Source: an uncultured bacterium
GTDB taxonomy: Bacteria > Patescibacteriota > Microgenomatia > UBA1400 > UBA12108
Assembly: GCA_903945195.1 (NCBI GenBank)
Contig: CAJAUT010000006.1
Coordinates: 493 to 64,492, forward strand
Length of the DNA: 64,000 bases
Reading direction: 5' to 3'
The number at the start of each line of letters is the position of its first letter. Within the stretch, counting starts at the first letter, position 1. Positions 12 through 21,928 of the stretch are shown piece by piece. Made by a program: the position numbers and the translations under genes. A model generated the notes under the pieces. It searched no databases. It was given only the letters and a program-made list of their open reading frames with translations, and was not told the origin of the DNA.

Positions 12-1631
12 GTGGAGAAACAATCCGCTAAAGCTCCTGGCCGTCCACTCTTTAATCAAATGATCGGTAGGCTAGAAAAAGGTGAGGCGAACGGAATAGT
101 CAGTTGGAATCCCGATAGGTTGGCTAGAAATAGTGTGGATGGCGGCAAAATTATCTATCTCCTCGATACCGGGCGTATTGTGGCGTTGAAGTTCCCAACA
201 TTTTGGTTTGAACCAACGCCACAAGGAAAGTTCATGCTCAATATCGCCTTTGGACAAAGCAAATACTATGTGGATTCGCTTGCCGAAAATACCAAAAGAG
301 GACTCCGCCAGAAAGTGAGGCGGGGAGAATTCCCTGGTTGTGCTCCAATCGGCTATATCAACGATGTGAGAAACAAGAGTATTGCTGTAGACCGCAAGCG
401 GAGTGTAATCATCCGTAAGGCTTTCGAGTTGTACGCCCAAGGCAATAGCCGATTGGAGGATATCAGCACTTTTCTGGCGGAGAATGGATTAAACGCACGA
501 GGAGGCAAGCGACTCCACAAAGACAGAATCAATTTTATCCTCCACAACCCGTTCTACTACGGACACTTTAGGTATTTGGGTGAAACATACGAAGGTCATC
601 ACCAGCCAGTCATCACCAAGCAGTTGTTTGATCAGGTGCAGGTGGTACTCTCGGAGCGTGGTCGTCCATACCAAACCCCCACCTATGCCTCCCAAGCCCT
701 CTGTGGACTCCTGCGGTGTGGCACCTGCCAGATGATGATCACTGGCGAGGCCAAAACCAAACACCAAAAGAATGGTAACGAGCACCACTACGTCTACTAT
801 CACTGCACCAGGAAACATAAAACCATCAGGTGCAGTGAGCCACCCGTAGCCGAGGGTGAGTTAGCTCGCCAGTTATCATCCCTGATCAAACAACCTGCTT
901 TATCACCGAGTTGGGCGGAATCTATGCGAAACAAGTTAGCAGAAGATAAGATAGACTCCGCCCAATCGGTTACTGCGTTTGTGTCAGAGACAACCAATAC
1001 TATTCGTGCCATTGATCATAAGCTACAGCGACTGCTCGACGGCTATCTCGACCAACTGATTGACCAGGATATCTACAAAACACAGAAGAATAAGTTGGTC
1101 AGTTCTAAGAAGTCGCTAACTGATCAATTGGCACGCATGACACAAACGCAGACTCGCTGGGTAGAACCGATGCTCAAATGGATAAATCAGGCAGAGAATC
1201 TGCCTGCAGTCGCCGAGTGTGGCACTCTTACACAGGTCAAGAGTGCAGCCAAAGAAATCTTTGGCTCGGACCTATGGCTTTCCGCGAGCGAAGCGAGCGG
1301 GACAGCACAATCCCCCTGGGATTCTGTGATCTCTGCGACCAGTCGGTGCAAAAAAGCTGAAAATTTGCAAAACAGTTGTGCTTGGGTGGGCCCACTGGGA
1401 TTCGGACCCAGGACACCCTACTTAAGAGGCAGGTGCTCTAACCAGCTGAGCTATAGGCCCACTATTAACTTATATACCCCTGATGCATCTTTATTTGAAC
1501 ACTTTCTGCCTTGGATTCAGAAAATAATGTTCGCATTAATGAATCTGAACCAGACTATCAATATCAGGGTTTACAAAAAAGTATTATACGAGAAAAGTTG
1601 GCTAATTAAAATAGCGGTAGTCGTAGACTAA
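12..1631 (+). CDS. Large serine recombinase (5'-truncated at window edge). The ORF reads across the antisense tRNA-Lys, so the true C-terminus is uncertain.
   Basis: Resolvase catalytic-domain tail (GIVSWNPDRLARNSVDG), recombinase domain and a Cys-rich zinc ribbon (CGLLRCGTCQ...YHCTRK). No upstream start within the window. Confidence 0.8.
   Translation: MEKQSAKAPGRPLFNQMIGRLEKGEANGIVSWNPDRLARNSVDGGKIIYLLDTGRIVALKFPTFWFEPTPQGKFMLNIAFGQSKYYVDSLAENTKRGLRQKVRRGEFPGCAPIGYINDVRNKSIAVDRKRSVIIRKAFELYAQGNSRLEDISTFLAENGLNARGGKRLHKDRINFILHNPFYYGHFRYLGETYEGHHQPVITKQLFDQVQVVLSERGRPYQTPTYASQALCGLLRCGTCQMMITGEAKTKHQKNGNEHHYVYYHCTRKHKTIRCSEPPVAEGELARQLSSLIKQPALSPSWAESMRNKLAEDKIDSAQSVTAFVSETTNTIRAIDHKLQRLLDGYLDQLIDQDIYKTQKNKLVSSKKSLTDQLARMTQTQTRWVEPMLKWINQAENLPAVAECGTLTQVKSAAKEIFGSDLWLSASEASGTAQSPWDSVISATSRCKKAENLQNSCAWVGPLGFGPRTPYLRGRCSNQLSYRPTINLYTPDASLFEHFLPWIQKIMFALMNLNQTINIRVYKKVLYEKSWLIKIAVVVD
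1385..1460 (-). tRNA. tRNA-Lys (anticodon CTT)
   Basis: Reverse complement GGGCCTATAGCTCAGCTGGTTAGAGCACCTGCCTCTTAAGTAGGGTGTCCTGGGTCCGAATCCCAGTGGGCCCA folds as a cloverleaf. Acceptor 7 bp, D arm GCTC/GAGC, anticodon stem CCTGC/GTAGG, loop CTCTTAA, T arm CTGGG-TCCGAAT-CCCAG. Confidence 0.75.
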
Positions 1632-1778: not shown

Positions 1779-2756
1779 ATGAAATCTGATACCAGAGATA
1801 AAATCATAGCATATATCCGTGCTAACGGACGAGTAACTCCCAAAGACCTTGTGGAACATCTTGGGATTAGCAAGCAAGCATTTTTTGTGCAGGCTAGCAA
1901 GTTGCTAAAGCTCGGGGAACTTGTCAAAACAGGCAAACCTCCTCGCGTATATTACTCTATACCAGACAAACAAGCAGAAAATAGCGATACAGTAACAGGT
2001 ACCGATTTGCGAAATTTTATTAACGAGCGATATCTATACATCAGTCCGCTCGGGGAAAAGTTGGACGGGGTGGATGGATTCTCAAAGTGGTGTCACAAAA
2101 CTGGGCAACGGGCAGAAAAGACCGCCAAAGAATATGTTGCAGCTCAGAAAAAATACGATCAGTGGGTCAAAGATGGCTTTATTAACGGTGATAAAAAAAT
2201 GTCGAGTACTTTTGACAAGGTCTATGTTGATACCCTTTACTATCTCGATTTCTACAGTATTGAGCGATTTGGCAAGACTAAACTTGGTCAACTCCTTCTC
2301 TACGCTAAACAGAGTCAGAGCAAAACAGTAATTAGCGAACTCACAGATCTTATCCGTGGGGGTGTGTACAGCCTTATTAAAAAAGAAAAAATTAGTAGTG
2401 TCGGGTTTGTACCCGCTACAGTTAGGCGTGAAGTACAGCTTATGAAGGAGCTAGAAAGTGGACTGGCTCTACCTCTTCGCAAAATTAAAATTGCCAAAGT
2501 GCAGTCGGAGCTTATGGTACCGCAAAAAACTCTTGTTAGGCTTCCAGACCGAATAGAGAACGCCGCTAGAACGATAGTAGTCGAGGACAATGATAACCAT
2601 GAGAACATACTCATCATCGACGATGCTGTCGGGAGTGGAGCTACCCTCAACGAGACGGCAAGACAAATACGAGAAAAGAGGATCGTAAAAGGCAAGATAA
2701 TCGGGCTAGCGATTGTGGGGAGTTTCAAAGGATTTGACGTGATCAGCGAGGTCTAA
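1779..2756 (+). CDS. Winged-helix DNA-binding protein with a C-terminal phosphoribosyltransferase (PRTase) domain (PurR-like architecture)
   Basis: N-terminal HTH-like region (ITPKDLVEHLGISKQAF). C-terminal PRTase PRPP-binding motif ILIIDDAVGSGATLNE. Confidence 0.5.
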   Translation: MKSDTRDKIIAYIRANGRVTPKDLVEHLGISKQAFFVQASKLLKLGELVKTGKPPRVYYSIPDKQAENSDTVTGTDLRNFINERYLYISPLGEKLDGVDGFSKWCHKTGQRAEKTAKEYVAAQKKYDQWVKDGFINGDKKMSSTFDKVYVDTLYYLDFYSIERFGKTKLGQLLLYAKQSQSKTVISELTDLIRGGVYSLIKKEKISSVGFVPATVRREVQLMKELESGLALPLRKIKIAKVQSELMVPQKTLVRLPDRIENAARTIVVEDNDNHENILIIDDAVGSGATLNETARQIREKRIVKGKIIGLAIVGSFKGFDVISEV

Positions 2757-2920
2757 TAAATCTCAAATCCCACCTCGGGCGCGCGATGTTTTATCGCATC
2801 TAGCCAAACTCGACGGGAGAAATACAAATATCGATGTACCTATCCGGACTACTTAAACACCGAGATTAGCCCATTATATCAATCAATTTGTACCTTCGAT
2901 AATTGTGCTATGTCTTCTAG

Positions 2921-3000
2921 TGCCGAGGAGAGGACTTGAACCTCCATGAATTACTTCACACGCACCTCAAGCGTGCGCGTCTACCATTTCGCCACCTCGG
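2921..3000 (-). tRNA. tRNA-Leu (anticodon GAG), long variable arm
   Basis: Reverse complement GCCGAGGTGGCGAAATGGTAGACGCGCACGCTTGAGGTGCGTGTGAAGTAATTCATGGAGGTTCAAGTCCTCTCCTCGGCA. Anticodon stem CACGC/GCGTG, loop TTGAGGT. T arm GGAGG-TTCAAGT-CCTCT. Confidence 0.8.
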
Positions 3001-3336
3001 CAATTTGCAAAGATTAGTATTTCTACCAACTTTAGCAGTATTAACTTGTTTGTGTACCATTTCGCCCGCCTGCAACAGTTGTGCTGTAAGCACTGCGGGC
3101 AGGCCACCTCGGCAATTTGCAAAGATTAGTATTTCTACCAACTTTAGCAGTATTAACTTGTTTGTGTACCATTTCGCCCGCCTGCAACAGTTGTGCTGTA
3201 AGCACTGCGGGCAGGCCACCTCGGCAATCAATAAAAGTCAGGTATTGCTACCAACTTTATCTTATTAACTTGTTTGTCTACCATTTCGCCCGCCTGCAAC
3301 AGCTGTGCTGTAAGCACTGCGGGCAGGCCACCTCGG
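2991..3336. repeat. Tandem array of three 112-bp units (2991-3102, 3103-3214, 3215-3326) plus a 10-bp terminal partial (3327-3336). Each unit is the tRNA-Leu 5' end (nt 1-10), a 38-bp imperfect-palindrome hairpin, tRNA nt ~11-23, then ~50 bp of spacer.
   Basis: Units 1 and 2 are identical. Unit 3 has a diverged spacer but a conserved hairpin and tRNA pieces. Period measured from recurring CCACCTCGGC at 2991, 3103, 3215 and 3327. Confidence 0.9.
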
Positions 3337-3387
3337 CTTATTTAACGTGCAGGAGCAATTATACTACACCAAGTATGATTCTTAACT

Positions 3388-3816
3388 TTAGTGATTTTTA
3401 TCTACTCCGGACTTGTACCAAGATTCAAGTGGTGTCATATCATCATGATAGTAATTGTAGTTAATAAATATTTCTTCATCCTGTGCCAGATCTACCAAGC
3501 TCGAAACTTCCATCACTCTCTTGATATAGTTAAATTTATACTGCGCATTTGGCTTGTACGAATGGTTATAGACACTGCCATACCCTAGGACTACGGCAAA
3601 TTCTTTATTTGAATATTCATAAAAATAATAAAACAACTTGGTCTGTTTTATCATTTCAAACTCTTTAATGGGCATAAATATGGCAGGGCACACCTCTAGT
3701 ATTTGCTTCTTCTTAATATTTTTGGCAGCAAAAACTCCATTCCCATCTGCCACAACAGATTTTTTGACATAAACATTAGACAAGCAAATATTATGCATAA
3801 GACATATATATATCAC
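3388..3816 (-). CDS. SET-domain protein (putative lysine methyltransferase)
   Basis: GNGVFAAKNIKKKQIL near the N-terminus, NHSYKPN (the NHSCxPN motif) and EEIFINY (the ELxxxY post-SET motif). Confidence 0.55.
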   Translation of the reverse strand: MIYICLMHNICLSNVYVKKSVVADGNGVFAAKNIKKKQILEVCPAIFMPIKEFEMIKQTKLFYYFYEYSNKEFAVVLGYGSVYNHSYKPNAQYKFNYIKRVMEVSSLVDLAQDEEIFINYNYYHDDMTPLESWYKSGVDKNH

Positions 3817-3822
3817 ATATTT

Positions 3823-4482
3823 TTACATCATTTTCACCCATAAATCACTGAATTCTCCGTCGCATCTGTATTTTTTATCATTTTTCACAAATCCATTGTA
3901 AGAGAGCACTTTTGCAGAACCAATATTATCTGGTGAGATAAAACCATATATCACAAGTTTAGGACGTATTTTGTACAGTTTTTCAAAACCAGCTTTTAAC
4001 TTCTTTAGAGCCAACTTTAGACCTTCCACTATCACACCTTTACGATTCAGGTGGAGATGCAATTTCGTCGTATAACTCAGCTTTTCTAATATTTCATCTG
4101 GCCAACCACCACTCATCAGTTTTTGATAGCTAACCTGAAATATACGAGAGTTCCTAGAAGTCAGACCATATGCGTCCATGACTTTACTAGGGAGTGGATA
4201 TTTTGAGTCTTGATAAAACCAAATCCACCCAACTAGCGCATCTTTTACGTCTACAACCCCGTACATCAATTCATAAGATTTTTTTGTCACTTTATAATCT
4301 ATCTTTGCCAAAGTCTTATCAACATCGTGCAAATCAGTAATTTTGGCAAAATCAAAATCATCTGTAAAATATCCTTTAGCTTTCATCACCTCTGGGTGAT
4401 AATACATCAAATTCATCCGTTCAACGTCTCCAGGATTTTGGGGGTCAAAACTGCGTAAGCGATATGGTACGGAAGTAATCAT
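3823..4482 (-). CDS. GNAT-family acetyltransferase-like protein
   Basis: C-terminal NIGSAKVLSYNGF resembles the GNAT motif. Convergent with the SET gene. Confidence 0.4.
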   Translation of the reverse strand: MITSVPYRLRSFDPQNPGDVERMNLMYYHPEVMKAKGYFTDDFDFAKITDLHDVDKTLAKIDYKVTKKSYELMYGVVDVKDALVGWIWFYQDSKYPLPSKVMDAYGLTSRNSRIFQVSYQKLMSGGWPDEILEKLSYTTKLHLHLNRKGVIVEGLKLALKKLKAGFEKLYKIRPKLVIYGFISPDNIGSAKVLSYNGFVKNDKKYRCDGEFSDLWVKMM

Positions 4483-4517
4483 TTGGGCATTTTACCACAC
4501 ATTTAGCCCTATAGTAC

Positions 4518-5645
4518 CTAGTTAAACAACTCTAGATACTCAATTTCCTCAAAATTCTCATCATTTTTCTTTGCAGATACACTAGTCCCATTTTTATCGA
4601 TAAGACCCACACAAACTGCCCCCAAATCCTTGTTTACATACGCTTCTTTTAAGTCATATAGGATAGTTTTATGTATAGTTTTATGGACCTGTAATATACC
4701 TCTAGAATTGAGAGATTGTATCAAATATTTCTGGTACATTTTTGCGTGACTAGCCATAGTTTTGTATCTATGTAAAAAATATCTATATCCTCCACGCCAG
4801 ATCTGCCTAGGTGGGGTAGCCCACAACATGGGTGGATATTTAGGATCTATCAAATTAGTTTGAGCCAAATAGTCACTAGGAGTTTCCCCAAGCATCTCGA
4901 TTTTTGACTCACTCCTAGCCAAAGTCAGTTTGTAGCCCTCACACACCTCTCCCACTTTACGCACTACATTGATCGCGTAACCGTCGATTAACTCTCCTAG
5001 ACTATTGATCATCTCTACAATATTATTTGGCTCGGCCTCCTCAGGCTTCATCCGCCAGATCATCCATGAGATCATATTGACTAGCACTGGCCTCTCAACT
5101 TCAGCGACACCATTTTCTTTTACAAAAAGCGTATCTATCGCAGTGATTAGCCCACTTTTAAATCCATACAGCCCGCATCCAGGCATGAGATTATTGTATA
5201 CAAGGGTGCACGACCTACCACTAGGTTCTTCAAACGCTATAGTCATCGGATCACTCATATGTAGCTCTATATGTTCGTTGTCGATAAACTCTTCTTCCGT
5301 GTGTAGCAGTGCAACTCCACTGCCGTAGCGTGCGATAAATGACTGGCAACCTGATAAATTGTCCGCTAGTAGCCACATAGCTTGTTCATTTGTGATCTCT
5401 GCACCTCTTGCCCACGCACTCAAACACTCTCTAAATTCACTACACTCCTTTTTATCTTGGATATAAGTCCAACTTTTCTCAGCCACCTGTCTACGTATCA
5501 CCGTCAATTTAGCTCTTTTTTTTGACAGTTTATTTACAGATTCTTGGATATTTTTACCAAATAGCCTACCAACATCACGATATTGCTCAATTAGGGTCGT
5601 TCCTTTAGCCTGGTATATATTTTGCATTACTTCATTATATTGCAT
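4518..5645 (-). CDS. Hypothetical protein. Weak resemblance to an Ntn-hydrolase/C45-type fold (LSGCQSF...YGSG), not verified.
   Basis: Long ORF in a coherent gene cluster. No confident motif. Confidence 0.3.
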   Translation of the reverse strand: MQYNEVMQNIYQAKGTTLIEQYRDVGRLFGKNIQESVNKLSKKRAKLTVIRRQVAEKSWTYIQDKKECSEFRECLSAWARGAEITNEQAMWLLADNLSGCQSFIARYGSGVALLHTEEEFIDNEHIELHMSDPMTIAFEEPSGRSCTLVYNNLMPGCGLYGFKSGLITAIDTLFVKENGVAEVERPVLVNMISWMIWRMKPEEAEPNNIVEMINSLGELIDGYAINVVRKVGEVCEGYKLTLARSESKIEMLGETPSDYLAQTNLIDPKYPPMLWATPPRQIWRGGYRYFLHRYKTMASHAKMYQKYLIQSLNSRGILQVHKTIHKTILYDLKEAYVNKDLGAVCVGLIDKNGTSVSAKKNDENFEEIEYLELFN

Positions 5646-5675
5646 TTATTTTTATATCCTGTATAAAAATACTTT

Positions 5676-6743
5676 GTGGTAACAAATATAGTCAACTCAC
5701 CAAGTACTCGCGGACTCATTGCCAAAGCAAACAGAGCGGGTGGCAAACTCCCAGGAAAAATCGCCATTTTGTATACCGATGCCAAACGGGAATATTGCTC
5801 CACAGACGAAGAATTTCAAACTATCGATGGCTCCTACGAAGAAGCCTTACTTTTTGACCCATATTTTGTAAAACTAGGGATCAAGACTGTCTACATCAAA
5901 GCCGACGCTCACATGACCGAGAGATTGAAAAAAGAAAAGCCAAATATGGCGCTCAATCTGGTCACGACAGTCAAGGGCTACGATTACCTAGGCGCCACAG
6001 TACCTGCTGCTTTAGAACTCCTAGAGATTCCCTATACTGGCACCAATATCCTCGGCTTTTCCCTTGGCTGCAACAAATACCTCATGCATGCACTCCTTTC
6101 GCAACATGGGATCCCTGTCCCACGTTTCCAGCTCATGTCTACCAAGACCACACCCCTCGATCCCACGCTTCGTTTCCCCCTGATACTTAAACTCAACGAA
6201 GAACATAGCAATATCGAGATCAAACAGGAAAGCGTCGTCGAAAATGAAGAAGAGCTTCGTAAGCGACTGCGCTATCTCCTGCGCACTTATCAGCAAGACG
6301 TGCTAGTTTCAGAGTTTATCGATGGTCGCGAATTTGCCTCTTTTCTTTTCCAGTCCTACAACCAAAAAGTCTACACTGTCGAGCGCGTCATCAACATGCC
6401 AGGGGTCAAACATCAGTTTATGGACTACAACCTGGTCTGGAATGTAAGTGTCCAAGAATATGACAAGATTTTAAAAAAGGTTAAATATCATGATCCAATC
6501 TTAGATGCTTTTATCAAAAAAGCTTTCAAAGTCATGCGCATGGACGACTACGGCAAATTTGATATTCGCATGGATGTCCGCGGCAATTACTACATCATCG
6601 ATGCCAATGCCAACTGCCACTTTGCACCTCCGGAATCATTCTGTGATTGCGAGATTTCGCACGTTCTCCCCATGTATGGTGTACCATTTAAAATGTTACT
6701 AAAAAGATTACTCCAAAACACCATGAGAGAGTGGGGTTATTAA
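5676..6743 (+). CDS. Divergent D-Ala-D-Ala-ligase-like ATP-grasp ligase (paralog 1)
   Basis: Ddl-like N-domain motif LELLEIPYTG and the C-terminal ATP-grasp motif DIRMDVRGNYYIIDANAN. Lacks the canonical GEDG motif. Confidence 0.6.
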   Translation: MVTNIVNSPSTRGLIAKANRAGGKLPGKIAILYTDAKREYCSTDEEFQTIDGSYEEALLFDPYFVKLGIKTVYIKADAHMTERLKKEKPNMALNLVTTVKGYDYLGATVPAALELLEIPYTGTNILGFSLGCNKYLMHALLSQHGIPVPRFQLMSTKTTPLDPTLRFPLILKLNEEHSNIEIKQESVVENEEELRKRLRYLLRTYQQDVLVSEFIDGREFASFLFQSYNQKVYTVERVINMPGVKHQFMDYNLVWNVSVQEYDKILKKVKYHDPILDAFIKKAFKVMRMDDYGKFDIRMDVRGNYYIIDANANCHFAPPESFCDCEISHVLPMYGVPFKMLLKRLLQNTMREWGY

Positions 6744-6744
6744 T

Positions 6745-7761
6745 ATGGTTTTATCAGACGATCTCCTTGCCTTACCCAAAAAAGTTGCCATTTTATACTC
6801 AGACGTCAAGCGCGAGTATTTTTCAAACGAAGAAACCTATCTGACAGAAATGGGTGCAGATATCTACGCCGGAGACGTAGCCAAATATGTGGAAAAGATG
6901 GGGATTGTAGTCACGACTATACCCGGCGATGATCACATGGCCGAGAATCTAGTGAAATTCAATCCCGACATGGCCATCAATTTGATCGACTCTGTTAGAG
7001 GTCAAAGTACCCTTGGTTCATCTGTCCCTGGAGTCCTTGAGATCCTCCATATCCCCTATACAGGAGCAGGGACCCTAGGATGGGCGCTTGGGACCAACAA
7101 ATTCCTCATGTATCAGCTCCTACAAACTTCAGGAGTTCCAGTTCCTACGCACCAGATAGTCTCTAGCTCCACCGACATGATCGATCCTGGTATGCGTTAT
7201 CCACTCTTCCCCAAGCTCAACTACGAACATTCTAGTATCGGCGTAGCTGCAGACAGTATTTGTCACAATGAAAAAGAACTTAGGTCCAAACTTAAAGATC
7301 TGATCACCACCTACAAACAACCAGTGCTAATCGACGAGTTTATCGCGGGTATCGAGGTCACTGCCTCTGTTCTAGACGGTATGAACACCAAAGTGTATAT
7401 GGTCCAGCGCAAAGTAGGTGAGGGGATAGAAGACGTCGTGACGTTCGACAAAAAATGGAAAGATTATCTGGATATGACCTACATCAAATATGAGGATCCG
7501 ATTCTCAAAGGTTACGTTAAACAAGCTTTTGATATTCTCAAGATGTCTGATTATGCCCGCATCGACATCCGCATCGACGCAGCAGGCAGGTATTATTTCA
7601 TCGATCCAAATGCCAATCCATTCTTTGGTCCACCCAAAGAAACCCACGCCACCTACAGCATGATTCTCGATATGTACGGTGTCACTTTTGAAGAAACCTT
7701 AAAACGTTTATTCCTCAACACACTTCAAGATGCGCGTATAGAACAAAACGGCTGGCACTAA
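6745..7761 (+). CDS. Divergent D-Ala-D-Ala-ligase-like ATP-grasp ligase (paralog 2)
   Basis: LEILHIPYTGAGTLG and IDIRIDAAGRYYFIDPNANP. Start overlaps the stop of the upstream paralog. Confidence 0.6.
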   Translation: MVLSDDLLALPKKVAILYSDVKREYFSNEETYLTEMGADIYAGDVAKYVEKMGIVVTTIPGDDHMAENLVKFNPDMAINLIDSVRGQSTLGSSVPGVLEILHIPYTGAGTLGWALGTNKFLMYQLLQTSGVPVPTHQIVSSSTDMIDPGMRYPLFPKLNYEHSSIGVAADSICHNEKELRSKLKDLITTYKQPVLIDEFIAGIEVTASVLDGMNTKVYMVQRKVGEGIEDVVTFDKKWKDYLDMTYIKYEDPILKGYVKQAFDILKMSDYARIDIRIDAAGRYYFIDPNANPFFGPPKETHATYSMILDMYGVTFEETLKRLFLNTLQDARIEQNGWH

Positions 7762-8045
7762 GTCAAATCAAATCTCAGAGTCTTACCCACAGCCACAGCA
7801 ATCTTGGACATAAAATCAAATGACGGGTTAGAAGACCCACCTTCAAATCGTGAGATTACAGCTTGTTTCGTACCAATTTTCTTGGCAAGTTGTGACTGAG
7901 TCATCTTTTTGGCCAAACGCGCATCAATCATCTTGCATATCATGTCAAACTTGGGTTGTGATGCTGCATACATCGCTCTAAGACCTGGTCTACCCGCCAA
8001 AGCTTTCTTTTTAAATTCGTCATAACTATCGATAAATGGTTTCAT
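7758..8045 (-). CDS. XRE-family HTH antitoxin (HigA-like)
   Basis: HTH stretch MTQSQLAKKIGTKQAVISRFE. Immediately downstream of a RelE/HigB-like toxin gene. Confidence 0.55.
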   Translation of the reverse strand: MKPFIDSYDEFKKKALAGRPGLRAMYAASQPKFDMICKMIDARLAKKMTQSQLAKKIGTKQAVISRFEGGSSNPSFDFMSKIAVAVGKTLRFDLT

Positions 8046-8066
8046 AACACATTTATAATCTATAAG

Positions 8067-8399
8067 TTATAATCTGTCAAGCCTTTCCTCTGCAAGTTTC
8101 AACTCTTTGCTGGGTAGTTTATTAGTTTTCTTCTTAAATGAATTAAGCAACACAAATTGCGAGTTATGCCATGTATACAATAATCGAATCGGAACTTTAC
8201 CTGAAGTTCGTAGTTCGTATATGGTGCTACTAATTCTCTTAGCATATGGCAAAGATAACTTCGGACCATATACTTTAAGCAAGTCCATAACTCGCATTAC
8301 TTTATTAAAAGTTGCATCATCCAAAGAATAAATAAATTCTTCAACTGGCTTATCGTCGCGACTATTTGCATAAAAACCCAAAATCCATGACATAACCAA
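8067..8399 (-). CDS. RelE/ParE-superfamily toxin (HigB/Gp49-like)
   Basis: ~110-aa protein upstream of and co-oriented with the HTH antitoxin. Typical toxin-first HigBA arrangement. Confidence 0.5.
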   Translation of the reverse strand: MVMSWILGFYANSRDDKPVEEFIYSLDDATFNKVMRVMDLLKVYGPKLSLPYAKRISSTIYELRTSGKVPIRLLYTWHNSQFVLLNSFKKKTNKLPSKELKLAEERLDRL

Positions 8400-8449
8400 A
8401 TTATGACATATCAGATTATTCTTTGGTAGAATACATTCACGTAAATAGC

Positions 8450-8523
8450 TGCGGGATCGTCTAATGGTAGGACTCGGGACTTTGAATCCCGCTATCTAGG
8501 TTCGAACCCTAGTCCCGCAACCA
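8450..8523 (+). tRNA. tRNA-Gln (anticodon TTG)
   Basis: TGCGGGA-TC-GTC-TAATGGTAG-GAC-T-CGGGA-CTTTGAA-TCCCG-CTAT-CTAGG-TTCGAAC-CCTAG-TCCCGCA-A-CCA. Anticodon TTG. Confidence 0.8.
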
Positions 8524-10098
8524 CATAGGATTAGTAGGAATAAGATCAGGTCTTTTGCTCAATATATCAGCATATTTAGTAAGTTCGAACGTTTTCTTTT
8601 CTTTTATTGACCAATCTGAGACTTTTGAAAAAACATAATACGAATTTTTCAGCTGTATAGATACTATTTTATCTTTTAGTAAAAAGTTCGAACCCAAGTC
8701 TCTGACCACTCTACCTTTACCCATATCATCAGCTTTCTTAAACTTCTGACTTGCTGTTAATGCAAACTCCATCTCGTCTAGCAATTCTCGGTAACTACGC
8801 CTAACAGGTAGAGCATCTTCTGTACTTTTGAGTATGGTTATTTGATCAGCAATCTTCTTTTTGGCTGGCTTATACTCAGCATCAGTAATTGTCCCATCTA
8901 GCAACTTCTCAAGTAAAAGGGAAGATCTTTTCTCTAGTACAGCAATATCTTTTGATTTATCAAGAACACTGACAGATTCTTGCTTATTTTCTTCAGTCTC
9001 TAAATATGATGACCATTTACTAGCCCAGGATAAGAATTCTTTAGGAATACGAATACTTTTTACAACCTCCTCTAATTGTTCGTTAATCACCGACTTTGAT
9101 ATAGGAGGTTGTACACATGATTGTTGTTGTGACTTATGAGAACAGCGGTAGTAATCGTACGGAACGGTAGTATTAGAGCTTTTGTTAAATTTAAATTTGC
9201 GTGACCCTGAAACCATGCAAGAACAGTCTGCACAAAAGAATAACCCTCTGTAAGGAAAATCATGCTTGCTTCTGAGTGATTTGTGATTAGGATTAATTTT
9301 GGTTTGCACTAAATCAAAAACTTCCTTTGTGACCATTGGTTTGTGCTTGCCATGATACCAATTACCAGACCTCTTAGGCCACTCGAATTCACCATAAAAG
9401 AAAGGATTAGAGATCATCCTGTAGAACCCTGACCTACAAATCAACTCATCTTTGCCACCAGCATCTTTCCATGCTCTACAACCCTCCTCATAGGCCTCAA
9501 CAGGTCGTTTACCCTGCAAGATGGAGTACCAGCAGGACTTTAGATATGGAAAGCGTTTAGTGTCAGGCACAATAGTGCGATAACCCATAAGTTTTTGAGG
9601 CGTATTTTTGTATCCCTCAGGTACTGGAGCAGGTAGCCATCCCATTTTGGCTTTAGCAGTCATCCCACGTTTCACATCAACACTTTTGTTATCATTCTCG
9701 AGTTTAGCCTGACCCCACTCAAAACCTAGAAAGAATCTATCAGTTGGAGAAGCCACATAAGAACGACTAGGAGTAACAATGGTTTGCAGTAACCCCTGAT
9801 CCATTAGGTAGATCATTGCACCTGAATCAACGGAGTTACGAGATAAACGGTTAGGATGCCAGACCAAGATACCGTTAATCTTCTTCTGACCAATCAGGCT
9901 AATCATCTCGTTAAAAGCAGGTCTACCTGGTTTTTTGGCAGATTTAGATTCCTTAAATGTTGCCACAAGGGTAATTCCTAGCTTACTTGCGAGTTTCTTA
10001 ATCTCATCTTCTTGAGCAGGAAGCGATAAGGCTTGGCGATCATCGCTTTCTGAGGATTTACGAAAATAAGCACAGTATTTAATTTCCATGGCTTGCAT
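8509..10098 (-). CDS. Large serine recombinase (integrase)
   Basis: N-terminal resolvase domain (YFRKSSESDDRQALSLPAQ...ILVWHPNRLSRN), recombinase domain and Cys-rich zinc-ribbon region. 3' end overlaps tRNA-Gln. Confidence 0.85.
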   Translation of the reverse strand: MQAMEIKYCAYFRKSSESDDRQALSLPAQEDEIKKLASKLGITLVATFKESKSAKKPGRPAFNEMISLIGQKKINGILVWHPNRLSRNSVDSGAMIYLMDQGLLQTIVTPSRSYVASPTDRFFLGFEWGQAKLENDNKSVDVKRGMTAKAKMGWLPAPVPEGYKNTPQKLMGYRTIVPDTKRFPYLKSCWYSILQGKRPVEAYEEGCRAWKDAGGKDELICRSGFYRMISNPFFYGEFEWPKRSGNWYHGKHKPMVTKEVFDLVQTKINPNHKSLRSKHDFPYRGLFFCADCSCMVSGSRKFKFNKSSNTTVPYDYYRCSHKSQQQSCVQPPISKSVINEQLEEVVKSIRIPKEFLSWASKWSSYLETEENKQESVSVLDKSKDIAVLEKRSSLLLEKLLDGTITDAEYKPAKKKIADQITILKSTEDALPVRRSYRELLDEMEFALTASQKFKKADDMGKGRVVRDLGSNFLLKDKIVSIQLKNSYYVFSKVSDWSIKEKKTFELTKYADILSKRPDLIPTNPMWLRD

Positions 10099-10099
10099 T

Positions 10100-10296
10100 A
10101 TACCGCCCTCCTAAAATTGTACTTCTCATGCATCGTTTAATGACTGTTAGTAAAGAGTCATTAAACGGGGTCGCAAAAAACATTCTGGTTATGATGTTTT
10201 TCGTCCTATGGCCGAAAAACATCAATTTAGATGATTTTGGGCTTACCCTTGTCAAGGTCGCTTCGCTCCCTTGACAACAATTCCAACCCCTAGCCG
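10100..10296. promoter_or_regulatory. Non-coding region dense in inverted repeats (possible recombinase operator, attP or replication origin)
   Basis: CGTTTAATGACT/AGTCATTAAACG (12-bp IR), GTTTTTCG/CGAAAAAC (8-bp IR) and TTGTCAAGG/CCTTGACAA (9-bp IR), all read directly. Confidence 0.3.
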
Positions 10297-11406
10297 TTAC
10301 CATGTCGCCTCCTCCTCAACCGCAGGCACAGGGAGCAAAGCCTCCTGCGTAGGCTTTTTGAGTAACTCATAACCTAGAGCAAAAGGAGCATTTACTTTGT
10401 TAATGACTAGCTCACTAGGAATGGAAAGGGAAGTAATAGGACTATCCTTCATAACTACCCCAACACCTGACTCAGCAATCATCTTCAGATTACGAGTAAT
10501 TGTGCTGTTGTTGTAGATCATCTTCAAATTCTGCTTTTGCGCAGGACTACCCACGTAGAGCTGGTGAAACAAAAACAGATTTTTGGCTTTAACTTCACCA
10601 TGAACAACAGAAAGTAAATCAAAAATGGTTTTAGGAGAATCAATCCTAATCTCGCTGGAGCGAATGAGTTTAGAAAATAGGGAATTGAGAATGGAGTAGA
10701 CATAGTCTCGATTTTCTAGATCAGCTAAATGGAAACCTCCTCGCTTATCCTTAAAAAGATCATTGAGTTTGGCCTTACGAAGTTGCATCTCAAACCTAAG
10801 TACACCTTCACTTTCAATCTTCATGGCGTCAGCATATTCGCGGTTATACTCTCGCAAATCTCGAAAACCCTTATCAACATACTCAGGACTTTTGAGGTAA
10901 AAGATGCCTGAGTAGGCCTTGCCACGATAAACGATAGAGGTATCGTAATTAGCAGTCATTTTACGTGGGTAGCTATACCCTCGCAGACTATTGAGCAAAG
11001 ATTGAGCTAACTCCTGAGTAGGTAGCTTCCATGCGTAGCAAAGATCTAATCGTTGTAAAACCCAATCATTGACCGGGACGTACTTTACATGAAACCAATC
11101 ACCCATCTCGAGCCTAATCTCATTTAATAAAGCCATCAGATTATCGGGGTAGTACAGATAGACGTTCTGACCATAAACGAGTTTAGGAATGGAAAATTCA
11201 GCATATAGGTCATGGCGAGGAAGCTTCTCGTTGTAAACCATGAACAAGTGAATCGTAAAACTATTATGATATACGAATGTCAGGTTGCACTGTTTACAAA
11301 CAACCTTTCCCTTAAAATCATGTTTTGTAGTAACTACCTGGTGCAAACTCATATCATCAAAATCAACGTGAGTTATGGGAATTTTTAGCTTAATCGTGTC
11401 AATCAT
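10297..11406 (-). CDS. Hypothetical protein, possibly a rolling-circle replication initiator (Rep_trans-like)
   Basis: A Y-x-K then LRFEMQLR stretch recalls the Rep_trans family. Sits in the integrated element next to the IR-rich region. Weak. Confidence 0.3.
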   Translation of the reverse strand: MIDTIKLKIPITHVDFDDMSLHQVVTTKHDFKGKVVCKQCNLTFVYHNSFTIHLFMVYNEKLPRHDLYAEFSIPKLVYGQNVYLYYPDNLMALLNEIRLEMGDWFHVKYVPVNDWVLQRLDLCYAWKLPTQELAQSLLNSLRGYSYPRKMTANYDTSIVYRGKAYSGIFYLKSPEYVDKGFRDLREYNREYADAMKIESEGVLRFEMQLRKAKLNDLFKDKRGGFHLADLENRDYVYSILNSLFSKLIRSSEIRIDSPKTIFDLLSVVHGEVKAKNLFLFHQLYVGSPAQKQNLKMIYNNSTITRNLKMIAESGVGVVMKDSPITSLSIPSELVINKVNAPFALGYELLKKPTQEALLPVPAVEEEATW

Positions 11407-11650
11407 GTGTCTCCTCAGCAGTAAATCTGTAGAGGTCTAGGAGGTACACGGCTAACTTTCTCGCCTCAATCAGGGTTAGAAGTACACCAAACCGCTTTTG
11501 ATAATGAGTCTGAAACTCAATGACTGCCGAATCAGGTAAATTGCCAGCAGAATACCCACGATTACTCGCGTTAGCTAAATTCTTTGTCTGGGAATTACTT
11601 TCTTGAAAATTACACGACAAAGCTGGCGACTTATCGTCCCCATGACCCAT
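11399..11650 (-). CDS. Hypothetical small protein
   Basis: ORF only. Co-oriented with the element genes. Confidence 0.25.
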   Translation of the reverse strand: MGHGDDKSPALSCNFQESNSQTKNLANASNRGYSAGNLPDSAVIEFQTHYQKRFGVLLTLIEARKLAVYLLDLYRFTAEETHD

Positions 11651-11801
11651 ATGATTTCATACAATGGATACCGCTTGTCTAGCACCGCCTAACCAACCGC
11701 CCAATTGGTAAGGTACTTTTACACCTATAGTGTCAAAAATGCAATTAAAATCACAAATTATAAAAAACTTAATATACTGAAACAAAATTCATGGTGAAAA
11801 A

Positions 11802-12128
11802 TCAGTAAGCCTTAAGCTTAAGCCATATTTCCACTAAACCAAGGACTAAGGAACAAAACGCTGTAAAAACACCAACCACAACAGTGATTATTAGGATTTT
11901 ATTTTGCTTTTTTAAAAGATCTAATTGCTGTTGAAAATTATTTTTAGATTCTTGTCGATCCCACTCTGGCTGCATTTGCTCGGATAAGGTCGAAACAGGG
12001 AATTTCCAATCTTGATACAATCTCTCAATAACATGACCTAAACTAAAAATCGCTCTTTCGATGGAGCCAATTTTATTTAACAATCGTTCATCAATAGACT
12101 CAGGCATATCAGATATCCTAAGCATCAA
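11802..12128 (-). CDS. Hypothetical membrane-anchored protein
   Basis: C-terminal hydrophobic helix. Confidence 0.3.
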   Translation of the reverse strand: MMLRISDMPESIDERLLNKIGSIERAIFSLGHVIERLYQDWKFPVSTLSEQMQPEWDRQESKNNFQQQLDLLKKQNKILIITVVVGVFTAFCSLVLGLVEIWLKLKAY

Positions 12129-12444
12129 AAATAGTTATACCGAAAAATGATAAGAAGCGGGAAAAAAGTGATTTACTGCCAGATAAATGTTTAAAAACAT
12201 AAGCATCAGGAGAATTGATTGCATAAGATAGATCCATAAGCAGATCAGAACGATTCTTCAGGGTATCAGAACTAGGAACCTTAACTATTCCTTTTAACTT
12301 TTCTTCTAGATCTCTCCGAATTTCTTCATTATCTGCTAGGATACTCAGAAAAACTGCTGAACCTGTTAATTGCTCAAAATAATCATCAAATACCTTTTGT
12401 TCTTTAGGAATGAAAACTAGTTTTTGTTTTTTTAGGTAATCCAT
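12118..12444 (-). CDS. Hypothetical protein. The internal Met start is preferred so the gene does not overlap the zinc-ribbon ORF; the track ORF is 12118-12576.
   Basis: ORF only. Start choice is an inference. Confidence 0.3.
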   Translation of the reverse strand: MDYLKKQKLVFIPKEQKVFDDYFEQLTGSAVFLSILADNEEIRRDLEEKLKGIVKVPSSDTLKNRSDLLMDLSYAINSPDAYVFKHLSGSKSLFSRFLSFFGITIFDA

Positions 12445-12445
12445 G

Positions 12446-12697
12446 TTACTTAGTTTTTTCTGAGTTAGGCTTAGAAAAATAATAAAAACTATTACAAACG
12501 TTGCATTCCCAATATTCCAAAAGCTTCTCATTAGAAGGTAAAGGTATCCAAAAAATATGCCAGGTACTCCTACCAATTTTTTTTATAAAGGGAGTAATCT
12601 CCTTACAATTATCACAATGAGCCTTCAAAACCTCATCCTCTGGTGCTACCTCACCGCTCATTGCCGTACCAGTACCGTTAATTAATGAAAAATACAT
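12446..12697 (-). CDS. Small zinc-ribbon protein
   Basis: Two CxxC pairs (CDNCKE...CNVCNS). Confidence 0.35.
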   Translation of the reverse strand: MYFSLINGTGTAMSGEVAPEDEVLKAHCDNCKEITPFIKKIGRSTWHIFWIPLPSNEKLLEYWECNVCNSFYYFSKPNSEKTK

Positions 12698-12721
12698 ACA
12701 ACAAGTATAACAGTAATTATA

Positions 12722-12973
12722 TTACTTGAGTAAACTACCCCAAACAAAAAACCAAACTATGCCTAAGACCATTAAAGCTAATATTAAATATAAAAGTACT
12801 TTAAATATTTTGTGAAAAACTAAATAAGCATTTAGTAAACCATATTTTTTTAATAAATTCTCCCACTTATCAATAAAATTCTTTTTGACAATCGGTCCAA
12901 AATAACTTATCAAATAATACAAAACACCAACAAGACCAAGAAAAGACGCTTTTGCAAGAAGATCATTAGTCAT
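12722..12973 (-). CDS. Small membrane protein (two predicted TM helices)
   Basis: Hydrophobic segments. Confidence 0.3.
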   Translation of the reverse strand: MTNDLLAKASFLGLVGVLYYLISYFGPIVKKNFIDKWENLLKKYGLLNAYLVFHKIFKVLLYLILALMVLGIVWFFVWGSLLK

Positions 12974-13116
12974 AAATAAATTATACGCTAATTAGTCTCA
13001 AGATCCAAAAGCATAAGAAGAAGACGGAAAACTATAGGGATGGTTCGCAATCTCGTCCCATATCCGCAACACCTCTGGAGGCGGTTTAGGTCGTAAGAAC
13101 CTGATAAACTTAAATA

Positions 13117-13482
13117 ATGACCGAAACAACCCCAATTCCATTAGACGCAGTAATCTATGAACGTTTTAAAGAATTTGGGGCCATGCAAGCCTACGAATAT
13201 CTTGATGGTGATAAAGCTGCAAGAGAAGTTCAAAAGAAATCGTTCTTGAGTGGGGAAATTGAAAATCCCAAATTAGATTACCCCAAAATTGACCTATCTT
13301 TACTAGAGAGTAGAGAGAATCAACTACTAGATCTCAAAGCTGATATTTTAAAAGATGAACCAAATGAAACCGTAAAGCAAGTATATCGTTGGAAAATAAA
13401 CGAAAAAATTGCAGAAATAGGGTTAAGTGACATTTTGCGTTGGTTTTTCACTCCTGTTTCCGTTTCAGTAGTAAAGCAATAA
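13117..13482 (+). CDS. Hypothetical protein
   Basis: ORF only. Confidence 0.25.
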   Translation: MTETTPIPLDAVIYERFKEFGAMQAYEYLDGDKAAREVQKKSFLSGEIENPKLDYPKIDLSLLESRENQLLDLKADILKDEPNETVKQVYRWKINEKIAEIGLSDILRWFFTPVSVSVVKQ

Positions 13483-14380
13483 TTTGTCGCCTTTGAAGTA
13501 GTTTTGTGCCGCGATGATGATCTATTAGTCGTTGGATCTGGGCATTGATTCCACCCTCAATTCGGTTAGAGGTGTTTGGTATTTGTGGATAGCGGAGATA
13601 CTGAAAAAGATTGGGGAGAGCATTCTTTAAATGCGAGTGAGAGGCATGGAGGTGACCGTGAGTGTAGTGCCACTTGCGACGCCCCGTGGGAGTTAGTTTT
13701 TCTTGATAGGTTCTCTCTTTGAGGAATGCCCGATACTGCTGATACCAAGATTTATAGGTGAGCAACCAAGTTCTCAAATCATCCTTGGATTTCACTAGGA
13801 CGATTTGATTAACAAGGTATTTAAGTTTTCTAGCTGCCTCTGTTTCTGGGTGTTTGGTGAGGAGCAAGTTAATTTGATGGATCACGTGGAACTGGCACCT
13901 TTGGATGATCACTCCAGGGTAGCGGAGCTTGATTGCCTTAAGCATTCCTTTCTGTCCATCACATATAACTGCACGGGGAAAGGCACTGATACTATTCAAA
14001 AAAGTCAGCCAGGTGGAGGAGTTTTCTGTATAAGTGAAGTGCCAGCCAACTACTTGATTGAGTGGATTCTGAGCAATGAGAACGGTTGCACCATACTCAA
14101 CATAGTATCCATCAATAATGAAGATGTCGCTTTGGATGAGGTGACAACTTGGAGTGATCTCCTCATCCCTAAAAGGGGTAAACCACCTATCTAGAGTGCG
14201 ACGAGTGACTCTGTACGCCACCCCAAAGTCTGACAAAGTTAACTTGCTGAGGAGCCATTTCTGATACAGCTGACGGTGATATTTCTGAGTGAGATCGACT
14301 CTTAACCTCGTTTCATTAGACCCACAACGAGGACATCGGTAGTGTGCCTTTCCACTTCTATGGCTTCCCCATTTCTGCAT
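13448..14380 (-). CDS. IS1595/IS1-like DDE transposase with an N-terminal zinc ribbon
   Basis: CPRCGS zinc ribbon and a C-terminal TSNRIEGGINAQIQRL...HHRG motif typical of IS1595-family transposases. Confidence 0.6.
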   Translation of the reverse strand: MQKWGSHRSGKAHYRCPRCGSNETRLRVDLTQKYHRQLYQKWLLSKLTLSDFGVAYRVTRRTLDRWFTPFRDEEITPSCHLIQSDIFIIDGYYVEYGATVLIAQNPLNQVVGWHFTYTENSSTWLTFLNSISAFPRAVICDGQKGMLKAIKLRYPGVIIQRCQFHVIHQINLLLTKHPETEAARKLKYLVNQIVLVKSKDDLRTWLLTYKSWYQQYRAFLKERTYQEKLTPTGRRKWHYTHGHLHASHSHLKNALPNLFQYLRYPQIPNTSNRIEGGINAQIQRLIDHHRGTKLLQRRQIIALLLKRKQE

Positions 14381-14438: not shown

Positions 14439-15548
14439 TTGTTTCTGATTATATCCTATCCATCCGTCAAATCACTCGATTTTACCAACGCAAAATGTCA
14501 CTTAACCCCAGAAATACGCATGCTTCATGCATCAGAGTCAGGTGACATGAGGAAATTTAAAAAGTATTCCGAATTTGTATACGGGAAACCATCAGAAGAT
14601 ATTTTCGGATATACCGTTAACTCAATTCGATCCGAAGCAACATTAAATCTCGCAAGTGATGACGAAACAATTCAGGCAGCAGCAAGAGAGTTATTGGAAA
14701 TACTACCAAGCGAATTACCTCATCATGAAATAAGTTTAATACCAAATGATGAGGCAATAGCAAGCATGAGACAGGCTACGCTTGAATCTGCAGGAGACTT
14801 AATAGAGCTCCCCGAAGGCACTACTTTCGATGCTTCGAGTATTAAGACTACTTTTGACAGTGCTCTAGAAACTCTCAAGGCTGATGGATGGCAAGTGGTA
14901 ATAGATACAAGTAGTAAGTCTGGGATTAGTGTCGACCAAGAAAAACAACAAGTTAAAATACCTGAAGGAAGAACGTTGACTCCCAATAAGTTGCAAACAC
15001 TGATAGTACATGAAATAGGAACGCACGTAAAACGCAGGGTAACTGGGGAACGATCCAAACTTAAGCTTTTGGGATTAGGCCTCGATAGGTATGAGACTGG
15101 CGAGGAAGGGGTAGCAACAGCAAGAGAACAAGCTATGTCAGGGAAAGTAGATGACTTTGCAGGATTAGACGGTCACCTAGCAATTGGCCTTGCGTACGGT
15201 TTAGATGGCACACCAAGAAACTTTAGAGAAGTGTACGAAGTACTGAAAAAATATTACAAATTAACCAGTCTAGTCGGAAAAGAAGCTAAGGAAACTGTTG
15301 AAGACAAATCTTCAGATAAAGCATGGAATCGTTGCGTGCGTACGTTTAGAGGAAGTGACTCAAAAACAAAAGGGGCATGTTTCACAAAGGACATCGTCTA
15401 TAGAGAAGGAAATATTGGTACTTGGAATGTTATACGAAACAACCCACAAGAAATGGCGAGATTTGATGTAGGTAAGTACGATCCCAGTAACCCTAGACAT
15501 ATTTGGATACTGGAAACTTTAGGCATTGAAGACGCTGAAATTGTATAA
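14439..15548 (+). CDS. DUF1704/QEGLA-motif family protein with an HExxH (putative zinc metallopeptidase). The true start is possibly an internal Met at ~14520.
   Basis: HEIGTH motif and a GEEGVAT stretch resembling the QEGLA motif. Confidence 0.4.
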   Translation: MFLIISYPSVKSLDFTNAKCHLTPEIRMLHASESGDMRKFKKYSEFVYGKPSEDIFGYTVNSIRSEATLNLASDDETIQAAARELLEILPSELPHHEISLIPNDEAIASMRQATLESAGDLIELPEGTTFDASSIKTTFDSALETLKADGWQVVIDTSSKSGISVDQEKQQVKIPEGRTLTPNKLQTLIVHEIGTHVKRRVTGERSKLKLLGLGLDRYETGEEGVATAREQAMSGKVDDFAGLDGHLAIGLAYGLDGTPRNFREVYEVLKKYYKLTSLVGKEAKETVEDKSSDKAWNRCVRTFRGSDSKTKGACFTKDIVYREGNIGTWNVIRNNPQEMARFDVGKYDPSNPRHIWILETLGIEDAEIV

Positions 15549-21687: not shown

Positions 21688-21700
21688 TCTCCACTAAGTA

Positions 21701-21928
21701 GCCGAGGTGGCCCGCCTGCAACGCTTGTGCGTAAGCACTGCGGGCAGGTGAAATGGTATATACACAAGTTAATAAGCAAATCATACTTGAAAGGGTATAA
21801 TCTTTCTTGTATTAGCCGAGGTGGCCCGCCTGCAACGCTTGTGCGTAAGCACTGCGGGCAGGTGAAATGGTATATACACAAGTTAATAAGCAAATCATAC
21901 TTGAAAGGGTATAATCTTTCTTGTATTA
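21701..21928 (+). repeat. Two tandem 114-bp units (21701-21814, 21815-21928). Each is tRNA-Leu nt 1-10 (GCCGAGGTGG), a 38-bp hairpin (CCCGCCTGCAACGCTTGTGCGTAAGCACTGCGGGCAGG), tRNA nt 11-20 (TGAAATGGTA), then spacer carrying GGGTATAAT.
   Basis: Units are identical. Immediately 5' of the intact tRNA-Leu(TAG). Same architecture as the 2991-3336 array but the hairpin is in the opposite orientation relative to the tRNA. Confidence 0.9.

Follow-up and report, generated by a model that had tools for sequence, protein, structure and literature searches.

A lineage-restricted module of two Ddl-like ATP-grasp ligases, a predicted Cys-Ntn protein and a GNAT in Microgenomates, probably for making and trimming a small peptide-like compound

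What would a bacterium of the Patescibacteriota do with a tandem pair of D-Ala-D-Ala-ligase-like genes that lies outside any mur or ftsQ context and opposite a gene that no domain library names? The question is raised by a 64-kb stretch of DNA from an uncultured member of the Microgenomatia (assembly GCA_903945195.1, contig CAJAUT010000006.1, positions 493 to 64,492), referred to below, at its full length, as the window. Two divergent operons, with starts ~30 nt apart and gaps of 1-35 nt between genes, occupy positions 3388-7761. Their genes are here called LigA, LigB, Ntn, GNAT and SET, and a third ATP-grasp ligase gene elsewhere in the window is called LigC. A first-pass annotation had suggested a system that ligates and trims amino acids or peptides with the help of distal partners. 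The ligases, the GNAT and the Ntn protein do form a real conserved module, while the distal partners could not be substantiated. A small peptide-like compound is probably what the module builds and trims, and its reading as an ATP-dependent small-peptide or amide synthesis-and-processing pathway is given a probability of about 0.45. All five open reading frames (ORFs) exist at the coordinates and on the strands first reported:

3388-3816, minus strand: SET, a minimal SET methyltransferase (ORF of 142 aa; the gene caller's ATG at 3798 gives 136 aa)
3823-4482, minus strand: GNAT, a GNAT-fold N-acyltransferase by prediction, RimJ/RimL/SpeG-like with insertions (219 aa)
4518-5645, minus strand: Ntn, a predicted Cys-Ntn hydrolase/acyltransferase of a new sequence family (375 aa)
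5676-6743, plus strand: LigA, a Ddl-like ATP-grasp ligase (355 aa)
6745-7761, plus strand: LigB, a Ddl-like ATP-grasp ligase (338 aa)

The ligases are the most readily classified of these proteins. All three ATP-grasp enzymes of the window match Pfam Dala_Dala_lig_C (PF07478; E values of 1e-12 for LigA, 7.5e-17 for LigB and 4.6e-21 for LigC), in agreement with their original description as Ddl-like. The PDB sequence matches of LigA (~1e-12) and LigB (4e-15) are to Ddl enzymes only. In the profile comparison proposed at the outset, the Ddl type was thus recovered, while the RimK Pfam model was matched by LigA alone, at 2.1e-3 and below threshold. LigA and LigB are 43% identical to each other. 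With Ddl enzymes such as DdlB and VanA they share the ATP-grasp fold, the residues K97, K144, E187, D257 and N272 (E. coli DdlB numbering) and a ...LExxxIPYTG segment. Alignments confirmed that the C-terminal Mg/ATP residues and the motif LE(I/L)xIP(Y/V)TG are retained in the ligases and that the GEDG motif is missing, as had been claimed.

The remainder of the D-Ala site is a different matter. LigA and LigB are only 22-24% identical to Ddl enzymes, and their scores against the NCBIfam Ddl models are under half of the cutoffs (PRK01372: 91.4 and 106.1 bits versus 243; TIGR01205: 78 and 90 bits versus 245.65). The H63/GEDG loop is gone, the 276-282 region (G276, S281/L282) is replaced and carries an insertion after N272, Y216 is W in all of the ligases, and E270 is D in both LigA and LigB. 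LigB retains K215, R255, D257 and N272, whereas LigA has K in place of R255 and has lost K215 (V or C instead); LigA also has a conserved N-terminal extension and ends in ...EWGY. No mur, ddl or ftsQ neighbour was found in the related loci examined, where the genes next to these tandem paralogues are tRNAs, Ntn and GNAT. Because the NCBIfam scores fall far under the cutoffs and the D-Ala-site residues are replaced, LigA and LigB are, as judged by sequence, not true Ddl enzymes, and the earlier statement that they are not the housekeeping ddl holds.

These two proteins belong to a much larger group. A search with a single-copy relative from locus L073 gave 1357 matches at E<=1e-10, the best 120 of which are 65-99% identical to the query, and named members come from Beckwith-, Woese-, Roizman- and Chisholmbacteria. 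In a neighbour-joining tree, this core clade, LigA and LigB form three sister clades (41-50% identity), with LigC and one further clade falling outside and DdlB as the outgroup. The core clade is a large Microgenomates-specific radiation of Ddl-like ligases, sister to LigA and LigB, and its members are often annotated as D-Ala-D-Ala ligase. It is strongly conserved, and it has both the K255 and the lost K215 of LigA, so that these substitutions represent a functional variant and not the decay of a dead enzyme. Core ligases occur in varied contexts (L073/L074, L075, L077, L078 and L079), both as single genes and as tandem pairs and triplets. In some loci a CofE-like gene (F420-0:gamma-glutamyl ligase family) is a neighbour. 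In L075 a related ligase pair adjoins genes for a FemAB-family protein, a DegT aminotransferase and a transglutaminase-core protein, and in L078 a core ligase adjoins a proteasome-like Thr-Ntn protein, with a radical-SAM gene also present. As for LigC, it lies in a clade apart from LigA and LigB (21-22% identity).

The product of 4518-5645 had been left without a family, with a proposal to compare it to Ntn and C45 proteins. It has no match in Pfam, NCBIfam, PDB sequences or PADLOC, and was resolved by structure prediction only; its homologues fall into at least 100 clusters, all without names or Pfam domains. An AlphaFold model built on a 38-sequence alignment (pLDDT 92.1, pTM 0.92) retrieves isopenicillin-N acyltransferase (IAT; 2x1c/2x1d) first in a Foldseek search of the PDB, at E ~2e-10, followed by acid ceramidase, NAAA and then proteasome beta subunits. 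The model has a helical N-terminal pro-region (approximately residues 1-99) and suggests autoprocessing at Gly99|Cys100, with the Cys codon at 5346-5348. Both G99 and C100 are invariant in 38/38 sequences, and the first core strand (E101-107) starts directly after them. This predicted site mirrors the Gly-Cys autoprocessing site of IAT (Gly102|Cys103). Further invariant residues are H115, E117, E118, N264 and R293.

In its Ntn alpha-beta-beta-alpha fold, its helical pro-segment, its Gly-Cys processing site some 100 residues in and its conserved acidic, Asn and Arg residues after the Cys, the modelled protein resembles the C45/IAT group (to which Drosophila Tan also belongs), acid ceramidase and NAAA (C89). 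Unlike those enzymes, it is bacterial and presumably cytoplasmic, is genetically tied to ATP-grasp ligases, and shares only ~12-15% identity with them. Not one of the 38 members matches PF03417 (AAT) at E<=1, and one distant relative does so at E 0.013. Because no member matches PF03417, Ntn is a new family by sequence; by predicted fold it is an IAT-like Cys-Ntn protein, so the suggested comparison was borne out by structure even though the C45 profile fails.

Among 1.84 billion representative proteins, a profile search picked up only 180 Ntn relatives: ~8 close full-length proteins, a few fragments, and a remainder of ~400 aa. The longer, distant proteins carry GCQT, HTEE, LPG and DGY motifs, and C100 is invariant in them as well. 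In 51 metagenome loci they are found beside DUF362 proteins, creatininase-family amidases and polar-amino-acid ABC transporters; no ligase neighbours were seen in these loci, apart from a gene fragment in L073/L074. Such neighbours favour small-molecule amide substrates for the Ntn superfamily.

The GNAT call was weaker by sequence than first stated. The protein falls below the Pfam threshold (Acetyltransf_3, 3.1e-4, 21.9 bits versus 25.4), but the predicted fold agrees with the original call: the AlphaFold2 model (pLDDT 91.6) matches SpeG, RimI/J, AAC(6') and phosphinothricin acetyltransferase (PAT) at ~1e-6 with a probability of 1.00, and no match to Fem or L/F-transferases appeared in the fold search. 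Some orthologues have a precomputed PF13302 match, and some are named 'RimJ/RimL family'. In the region of the CoA motif R147 is invariant and G149 and G154 nearly so, which gives R-x-G-x4-G, a spacing unlike the canonical R/Q-x-x-G-x-G/A. The modelled fold is thus that of small-molecule or N-terminal acetyltransferases.

The call of a SET methyltransferase was upheld (Pfam SET 1.2e-11, 45.4 bits versus 22.4). Among proteins of solved structure it comes closest to PBCV-1 vSET (3.2e-10) and S. pombe Set7. Like vSET and other minimal SET proteins it is a single domain of ~120-140 aa, and the alignment to vSET spans YNHS and EEIFINY, the regions of the NHS motif and the catalytic Tyr. Unlike vSET, it is found in a bacterial host of the Candidate Phyla Radiation (CPR), as an optional part of a ligase/amidase module. 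Its position varies: it follows GNAT in the window, lies between Ntn and GNAT in L008 and L009 (65% identical to the window's protein), and is beyond LigB in L016 (35% identical). Three positions at 35-65% identity suggest repeated functional recruitment of an optional component.

Context look-ups and a scan of GTDB genomes yielded ~13 distinct related loci, and the arrangements described here hold for all of those with readable flanks. Co-occurrence is strict: the layout is LigB<-LigA | Ntn->GNAT, with the ligase pair divergent to Ntn in every case, LigA and Ntn start codons ~30-100 nt apart, and GNAT after Ntn in every locus but L015. Across these loci Ntn is 42-75% identical, LigA, in the same position throughout, 63-96%, and LigB 66-92%. 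The loci with readable flanks all come from metagenome-assembled genomes of Microgenomates/Woesebacteria, a group of ultra-small uncultured bacteria. Where homologues are named, they carry names such as Microgenomates, Woesebacteria and Moraniibacteria, and the Ntn gene is present in 11 of 185,579 species-representative genomes. No conserved neighbour beyond the module was found in the related loci, and the module itself contains neither a transporter nor a precursor ORF.

The flanks are conserved as well. A co-directional tRNA-Gln(ttg) gene lies a few to ~50 nt 3' of LigB in nine loci (L006, L008, L010, L013, L015, L019, L020, L021 and L022), and a co-directional tRNA-Leu(gag)-Lys(ctt)-Val-Phe-Gly array starts ~26-31 nt 3' of the abutting GNAT (~360 nt in L014). 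The features by which the window departs from or shares this arrangement are the following:

2920-3001, minus strand: tRNA-Leu(gag), the conserved flank 3' of the Ntn-GNAT operon
2991-3326: tandem repeats, 3 x 112 nt
7758-8045 and 8067-8399, minus strand: HTH antitoxin (Pfam HTH_3, 4.7e-12) and Gp49/HigB-like toxin (Gp49, 5.2e-18)
8450-8523, plus strand: tRNA-Gln(ttg), the conserved flank 3' of LigB and the integration site of a serine-recombinase element

The locus had been described as an accessory island bounded by tRNA-Leu and repeats on one side and by a toxin-antitoxin pair and tRNA-Gln on the other. Those features are real, but the island setting is not: because the same tRNA flanks enclose the module in all readable related loci, and the Ntn gene occurs in so few genomes and on no viral contig, it is a stable, lineage-restricted chromosomal trait. 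Three insertions in the window are lineage-specific: the toxin-antitoxin pair, found between LigB and tRNA-Gln in this genome and in none of the other loci; SET together with the 112-nt repeats; and a gene for a winged helix-turn-helix phosphoribosyltransferase (wHTH-PRTase) between tRNA-Leu and tRNA-Lys. Wherever serine recombinases lie near the module, tRNA-Gln separates them from it. In the window, L008 and L019 the recombinase gene touches or overlaps that tRNA at its 3' end, and in L015 two ORFs stand between them. These recombinases belong to elements integrated at tRNA-Gln, and the module is not their cargo.

Some exchange may have taken place within the locus itself. Relative to the window, L008 is 87% identical in LigB and 65% in LigA, while L015 is 91% identical in LigA and 75% in LigB, and the LigA and LigB neighbour-joining trees, which carry no support values, are discordant. 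Recombination within the locus is tentatively suggested.

Two further readings of the module as a whole were considered and rejected. A phage-borne origin was set aside when no relatives were found among IMG/VR viral contigs, and a role as a defence system when no module protein had a PADLOC match. A scan of 2800-8600 for promoters and terminators gave signal no higher than the shuffled expectation, and an Rfam scan gave five tRNAs as its sole matches, with no riboswitch.

The distal partners originally proposed fare less well than the core. They and LigC are located as follows:

14439-15548: MATCAP/DUF1704 gene (7e-23, a solid match)
18517-19197: M14/AstE-like gene (sub-threshold E values of 1.8e-3 and 1.3e-4; HGDEHE and FHED motifs present)
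19144-20214: LigC, the third ATP-grasp ligase

The DUF1704/QEGLA identification is sound, and that of the M14/AstE deacylase has its motifs in its favour and its sub-threshold scores against it. The linkage of these genes to the module was not recovered: with tblastn (E<=1e-2), no MATCAP-like, M14-like, alpha/beta-hydrolase or HAD gene was found in the other module-bearing loci, and a tblastn search with the kinase protein likewise found nothing there. The distal-partner hypothesis was rejected on the basis of these searches across all loci. LigC recurs in one other locus, L008, with different neighbours. In the window, the M14-like gene and LigC converge and overlap by 54 nt (18517-20214).

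Within the ligation-and-trimming proposal, the part that stands is therefore the conserved module. With 4518-5645 as an IAT-like Cys-Ntn protein, a logic of ligation plus amide cleavage or transfer is reasonable. In the scheme that we infer, with a small molecule rather than a protein as substrate and with a conjectural order of steps and product, LigA and LigB would each convert a carboxylate to an acyl-phosphate and couple it to an amine. Between them, the two would produce a small compound of the peptide-like or aminoacyl-amine kind, either by forming two amide bonds or as a heteromer. The predicted self-cleaving Cys-Ntn protein, of the isopenicillin-N-acyltransferase/acid-ceramidase type, would hydrolyse an amide of this compound or its precursor, or transfer an acyl group on it. 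GNAT could N-acylate a free amine as a tailoring step or for self-protection, and SET, where present, could add N-methylation.

Such a synthesis-and-processing pathway is favoured by the recurrent co-occurrence of the genes, the retained ligase catalytic residues, the context of the Ntn relatives, the GNAT fold and the recruitment of SET. A number of points weigh against it. The module has neither biosynthetic genes for an unusual building block nor an exporter. The equivalent of DdlB E15 differs between two alignments, being the E of a KRE motif in one and K in the other. SET proteins are typically protein-lysine methyltransferases and RimJ/L-type GNATs typically protein N-terminal acetyltransferases, so that a protein target fits equally. 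Finally, Ddl ancestry and the FemAB neighbour of the L075 ligase pair would fit cell-wall peptide chemistry. A more specific version of the same idea is less easily credited: it may be, though it seems rather unlikely, that the module and the Microgenomates Ddl-like radiation make and recycle a lineage-specific small peptide conjugate new to science, with Ntn as its dedicated amidase or transacylase and with expression coupled to the flanking tRNA operons. Such a product could be, for instance, a thiol of low molecular weight peculiar to CPR bacteria, an osmolyte, or a conjugate of a D-amino acid.

Among other explanations, cell-wall peptide chemistry survives best, although we consider it unlikely. 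In this model the ligases would extend the stem or cross-bridge of peptidoglycan by D-amino acids or a dipeptide, in the manner of D-Asp ligase or VanA, and the Ntn amidase and GNAT would edit or acetylate the peptide. ATP-grasp ligases are known to build D-amino-acid cross-links (PMC2922099), and here only Ddl enzymes turn up as relatives of the ligases, by sequence or by structure; yet their scores against the NCBIfam Ddl model are 91-106 bits versus 243, and other residues stand at H63, GEDG, Y216 and S281/L282. A chromosomal, syntenic locus would suit the model, but there is no mur/ftsQ context, and an Ntn-containing module in so few species-representative genomes is too sporadic for core wall synthesis. 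The FemAB-family, DegT aminotransferase and transglutaminase-core genes beside the L075 pair would suit wall chemistry, whereas no module protein looks secreted by eye from its N-terminus (a reading, and not a signal-peptide prediction).

More doubtful is modification of protein tails or protein amines, in which the ligases would add amino acids in a RimK- or TTL-like manner, Ntn would remove them, and GNAT and SET would acetylate and methylate the protein so modified, which might be ribosomal or otherwise abundant. The SET protein is nearest to histone-lysine methyltransferases, but it is optional. The RimJ/RimL-like names of GNAT orthologues and a translation-related neighbourhood (operons co-directional with, and 3-50 nt from, tRNA genes, with BipA nearby) are in keeping with this model, but the module has no conserved gene that could encode the target, and its ligases belong with Ddl and not with RimK or TTL. 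A proteasome-like Thr-Ntn protein does adjoin the L078 core ligase; the structural neighbours of the module's own Ntn, however, act on small acyl-amides and not on proteins, and the MATCAP-like and M14-like 'trimmers' are unlinked elsewhere.

Lower again in probability is a di- or tripeptide antimetabolite (a 'Trojan horse') made as a conflict system by an epibiotic bacterium, with GNAT conferring self-resistance and Ntn serving as a maturation or immunity amidase. Tandem ATP-grasp ligases with a GNAT resemble L-amino-acid-ligase clusters such as those for rhizocticin, tabtoxin and phaseolotoxin, but here there are no warhead-biosynthesis genes and no exporter. The discordance of the LigA and LigB trees, which would suggest recombination or diversification inside the module, has to be set against stable synteny in place of island-like mobility, and against the lack of PADLOC matches and viral copies. 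A graspetide (microviridin-type) ribosomally synthesized and post-translationally modified peptide cluster, to which two ATP-grasp genes and a GNAT had been likened, is essentially refuted by Ddl-type rather than RimK-type ligases, by intra-module gaps too short to leave space for a precursor, and by the absence of any precursor-like small ORF in the module or of a conserved one in the related loci.

For the small-peptide or amide pathway, instructive parallels are offered by other systems that combine an ATP-dependent amide-forming enzyme with a Cys amidase or Ntn protein and an N-acetyltransferase: glutathionylspermidine synthetase/amidase, Ebony/Tan, N-acetylglutaminylglutamine amide (NAGGN) synthesis with its GNAT-ATP-grasp Ngg and Ntn-type AsnO, carnosine synthase, and the L-amino-acid-ligase clusters. 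The likeness would be one of analogy only. By sequence the module belongs to none of these systems; its ligases are Ddl-type, its C45-like Ntn protein has no Asn-synthase domain, and its activities are encoded by separate genes.

The association of ATP-grasp ligases with GNATs and with peptidases or Ntn proteins is an established theme of comparative genomics, developed by Iyer, Aravind and co-workers, and includes the Anbu operons (PMC2922099, PMC6376114). The present module differs from those neighbourhoods in that its Ntn protein is predicted to be Cys-type and IAT-like, not the Thr-type of Anbu, and in that it lacks transglutaminase and Alpha-E partners; the M14/DUF1704 linkage was sought and not found. 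No account of this gene combination, or of an ATP-grasp expansion in Microgenomates or Patescibacteria, was found in the searchable literature. What is new here is thus the gene combination, the Ntn sequence family and the mis-annotated Ddl-like expansion, and not the theme of ATP-grasp, GNAT and peptidase association itself.

The metabolism of CPR bacteria, or Patescibacteria, is much reduced, and for most genes peculiar to their lineages no function has been assigned. The locus offers a module of 3-5 genes with a defined enzymology: two ligases, a predicted self-processing Cys amidase or transacylase, an acyltransferase, and an optional methyltransferase. It also offers a sequence family that current domain libraries miss, and a large radiation of Ddl-like ligases, so far unstudied, to which annotation pipelines wrongly give the name D-Ala-D-Ala ligase; caution is due before a 'Ddl' annotation is taken to mean peptidoglycan capability in CPR bacteria. 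The identity of the product, if found, could reveal a CPR-specific metabolite or modification.

The remainder of the window holds ordinary chromosomal genes, among them those for ThrRS, PheRS, PBP1, RecG, a type IV pilus ATPase and gyrase. With the names of the module's homologues, this marks the window as part of a chromosome of the Microgenomates type within the CPR. Several minor features were noted along it. At the left edge, segment 1-1353 of the large serine recombinase LSR1 (1-1631) is inverted relative to the module in L001 (1-1676), an independent metagenome assembly of the same locus. That assembly contains 87 nt (window 1267-1353) in forward and in inverted orientation. The segment may truly be invertible or rearranged, or the assembly may be at fault. 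The 3' end of the window's recombinase ORF runs antisense through tRNA-Lys (1383-1461). The wHTH-PRTase protein (1779-2756, plus strand) lies between tRNA-Lys and tRNA-Leu, which are adjacent in relatives, and matches PADLOC models for the PsyrT toxin and the retron/Shosta PRTase effectors (4.5e-12); it may be a defence effector brought by a mobile element.

Tandem repeats are located directly 5' of both tRNA-Leu genes: three units of 112 nt at tRNA-Leu(gag) (2991-3326) and two of 114 nt at tRNA-Leu(tag) (21699-21926). The two repeat families are related, and within each unit the 5' acceptor and D-arm of tRNA-Leu are found again (GCCGAGGTGG(C/T)GAAATGGTA...). The array is variable in copy number, with two further units of 112 nt in the L001 assembly. 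The repeats could be what is left of att sites after successive integrations, or an element derived from a tRNA.

On the other side of the module, a large serine recombinase gene (8509-10098) overlaps the 3' end of tRNA-Gln and is followed by small ORFs and by a gene (10297-11406) whose product is a rolling-circle replication protein of the Phage_CRI/G2P type. The region 8509-13000 looks like an inovirus-like or plasmid-like element integrated at tRNA-Gln, and similar recombinases are found at tRNA-Gln in L008, L015 and L019. Between 15554 and 17123, a 39-nt element occurs after the stop codons of the MATCAP-like gene and both HAD genes, and a 72-nt element occurs before both HAD starts, which suggests a cassette-like duplication; an IS256-like transposase gene (13448-14380) is present in the same region. 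Further along, an AAA_14/DUF4143 ATPase (25649-26824, plus strand) matches the PADLOC candidate defence family PDC-S01 (2.8e-104), and the N-terminal segment of PheRS alpha (33048-34832, plus strand) aligns with the profile of the class II AlaRS core over its C-terminal portion (Pfam tRNA-synt_2c, 2.2e-15), an unusual fusion.

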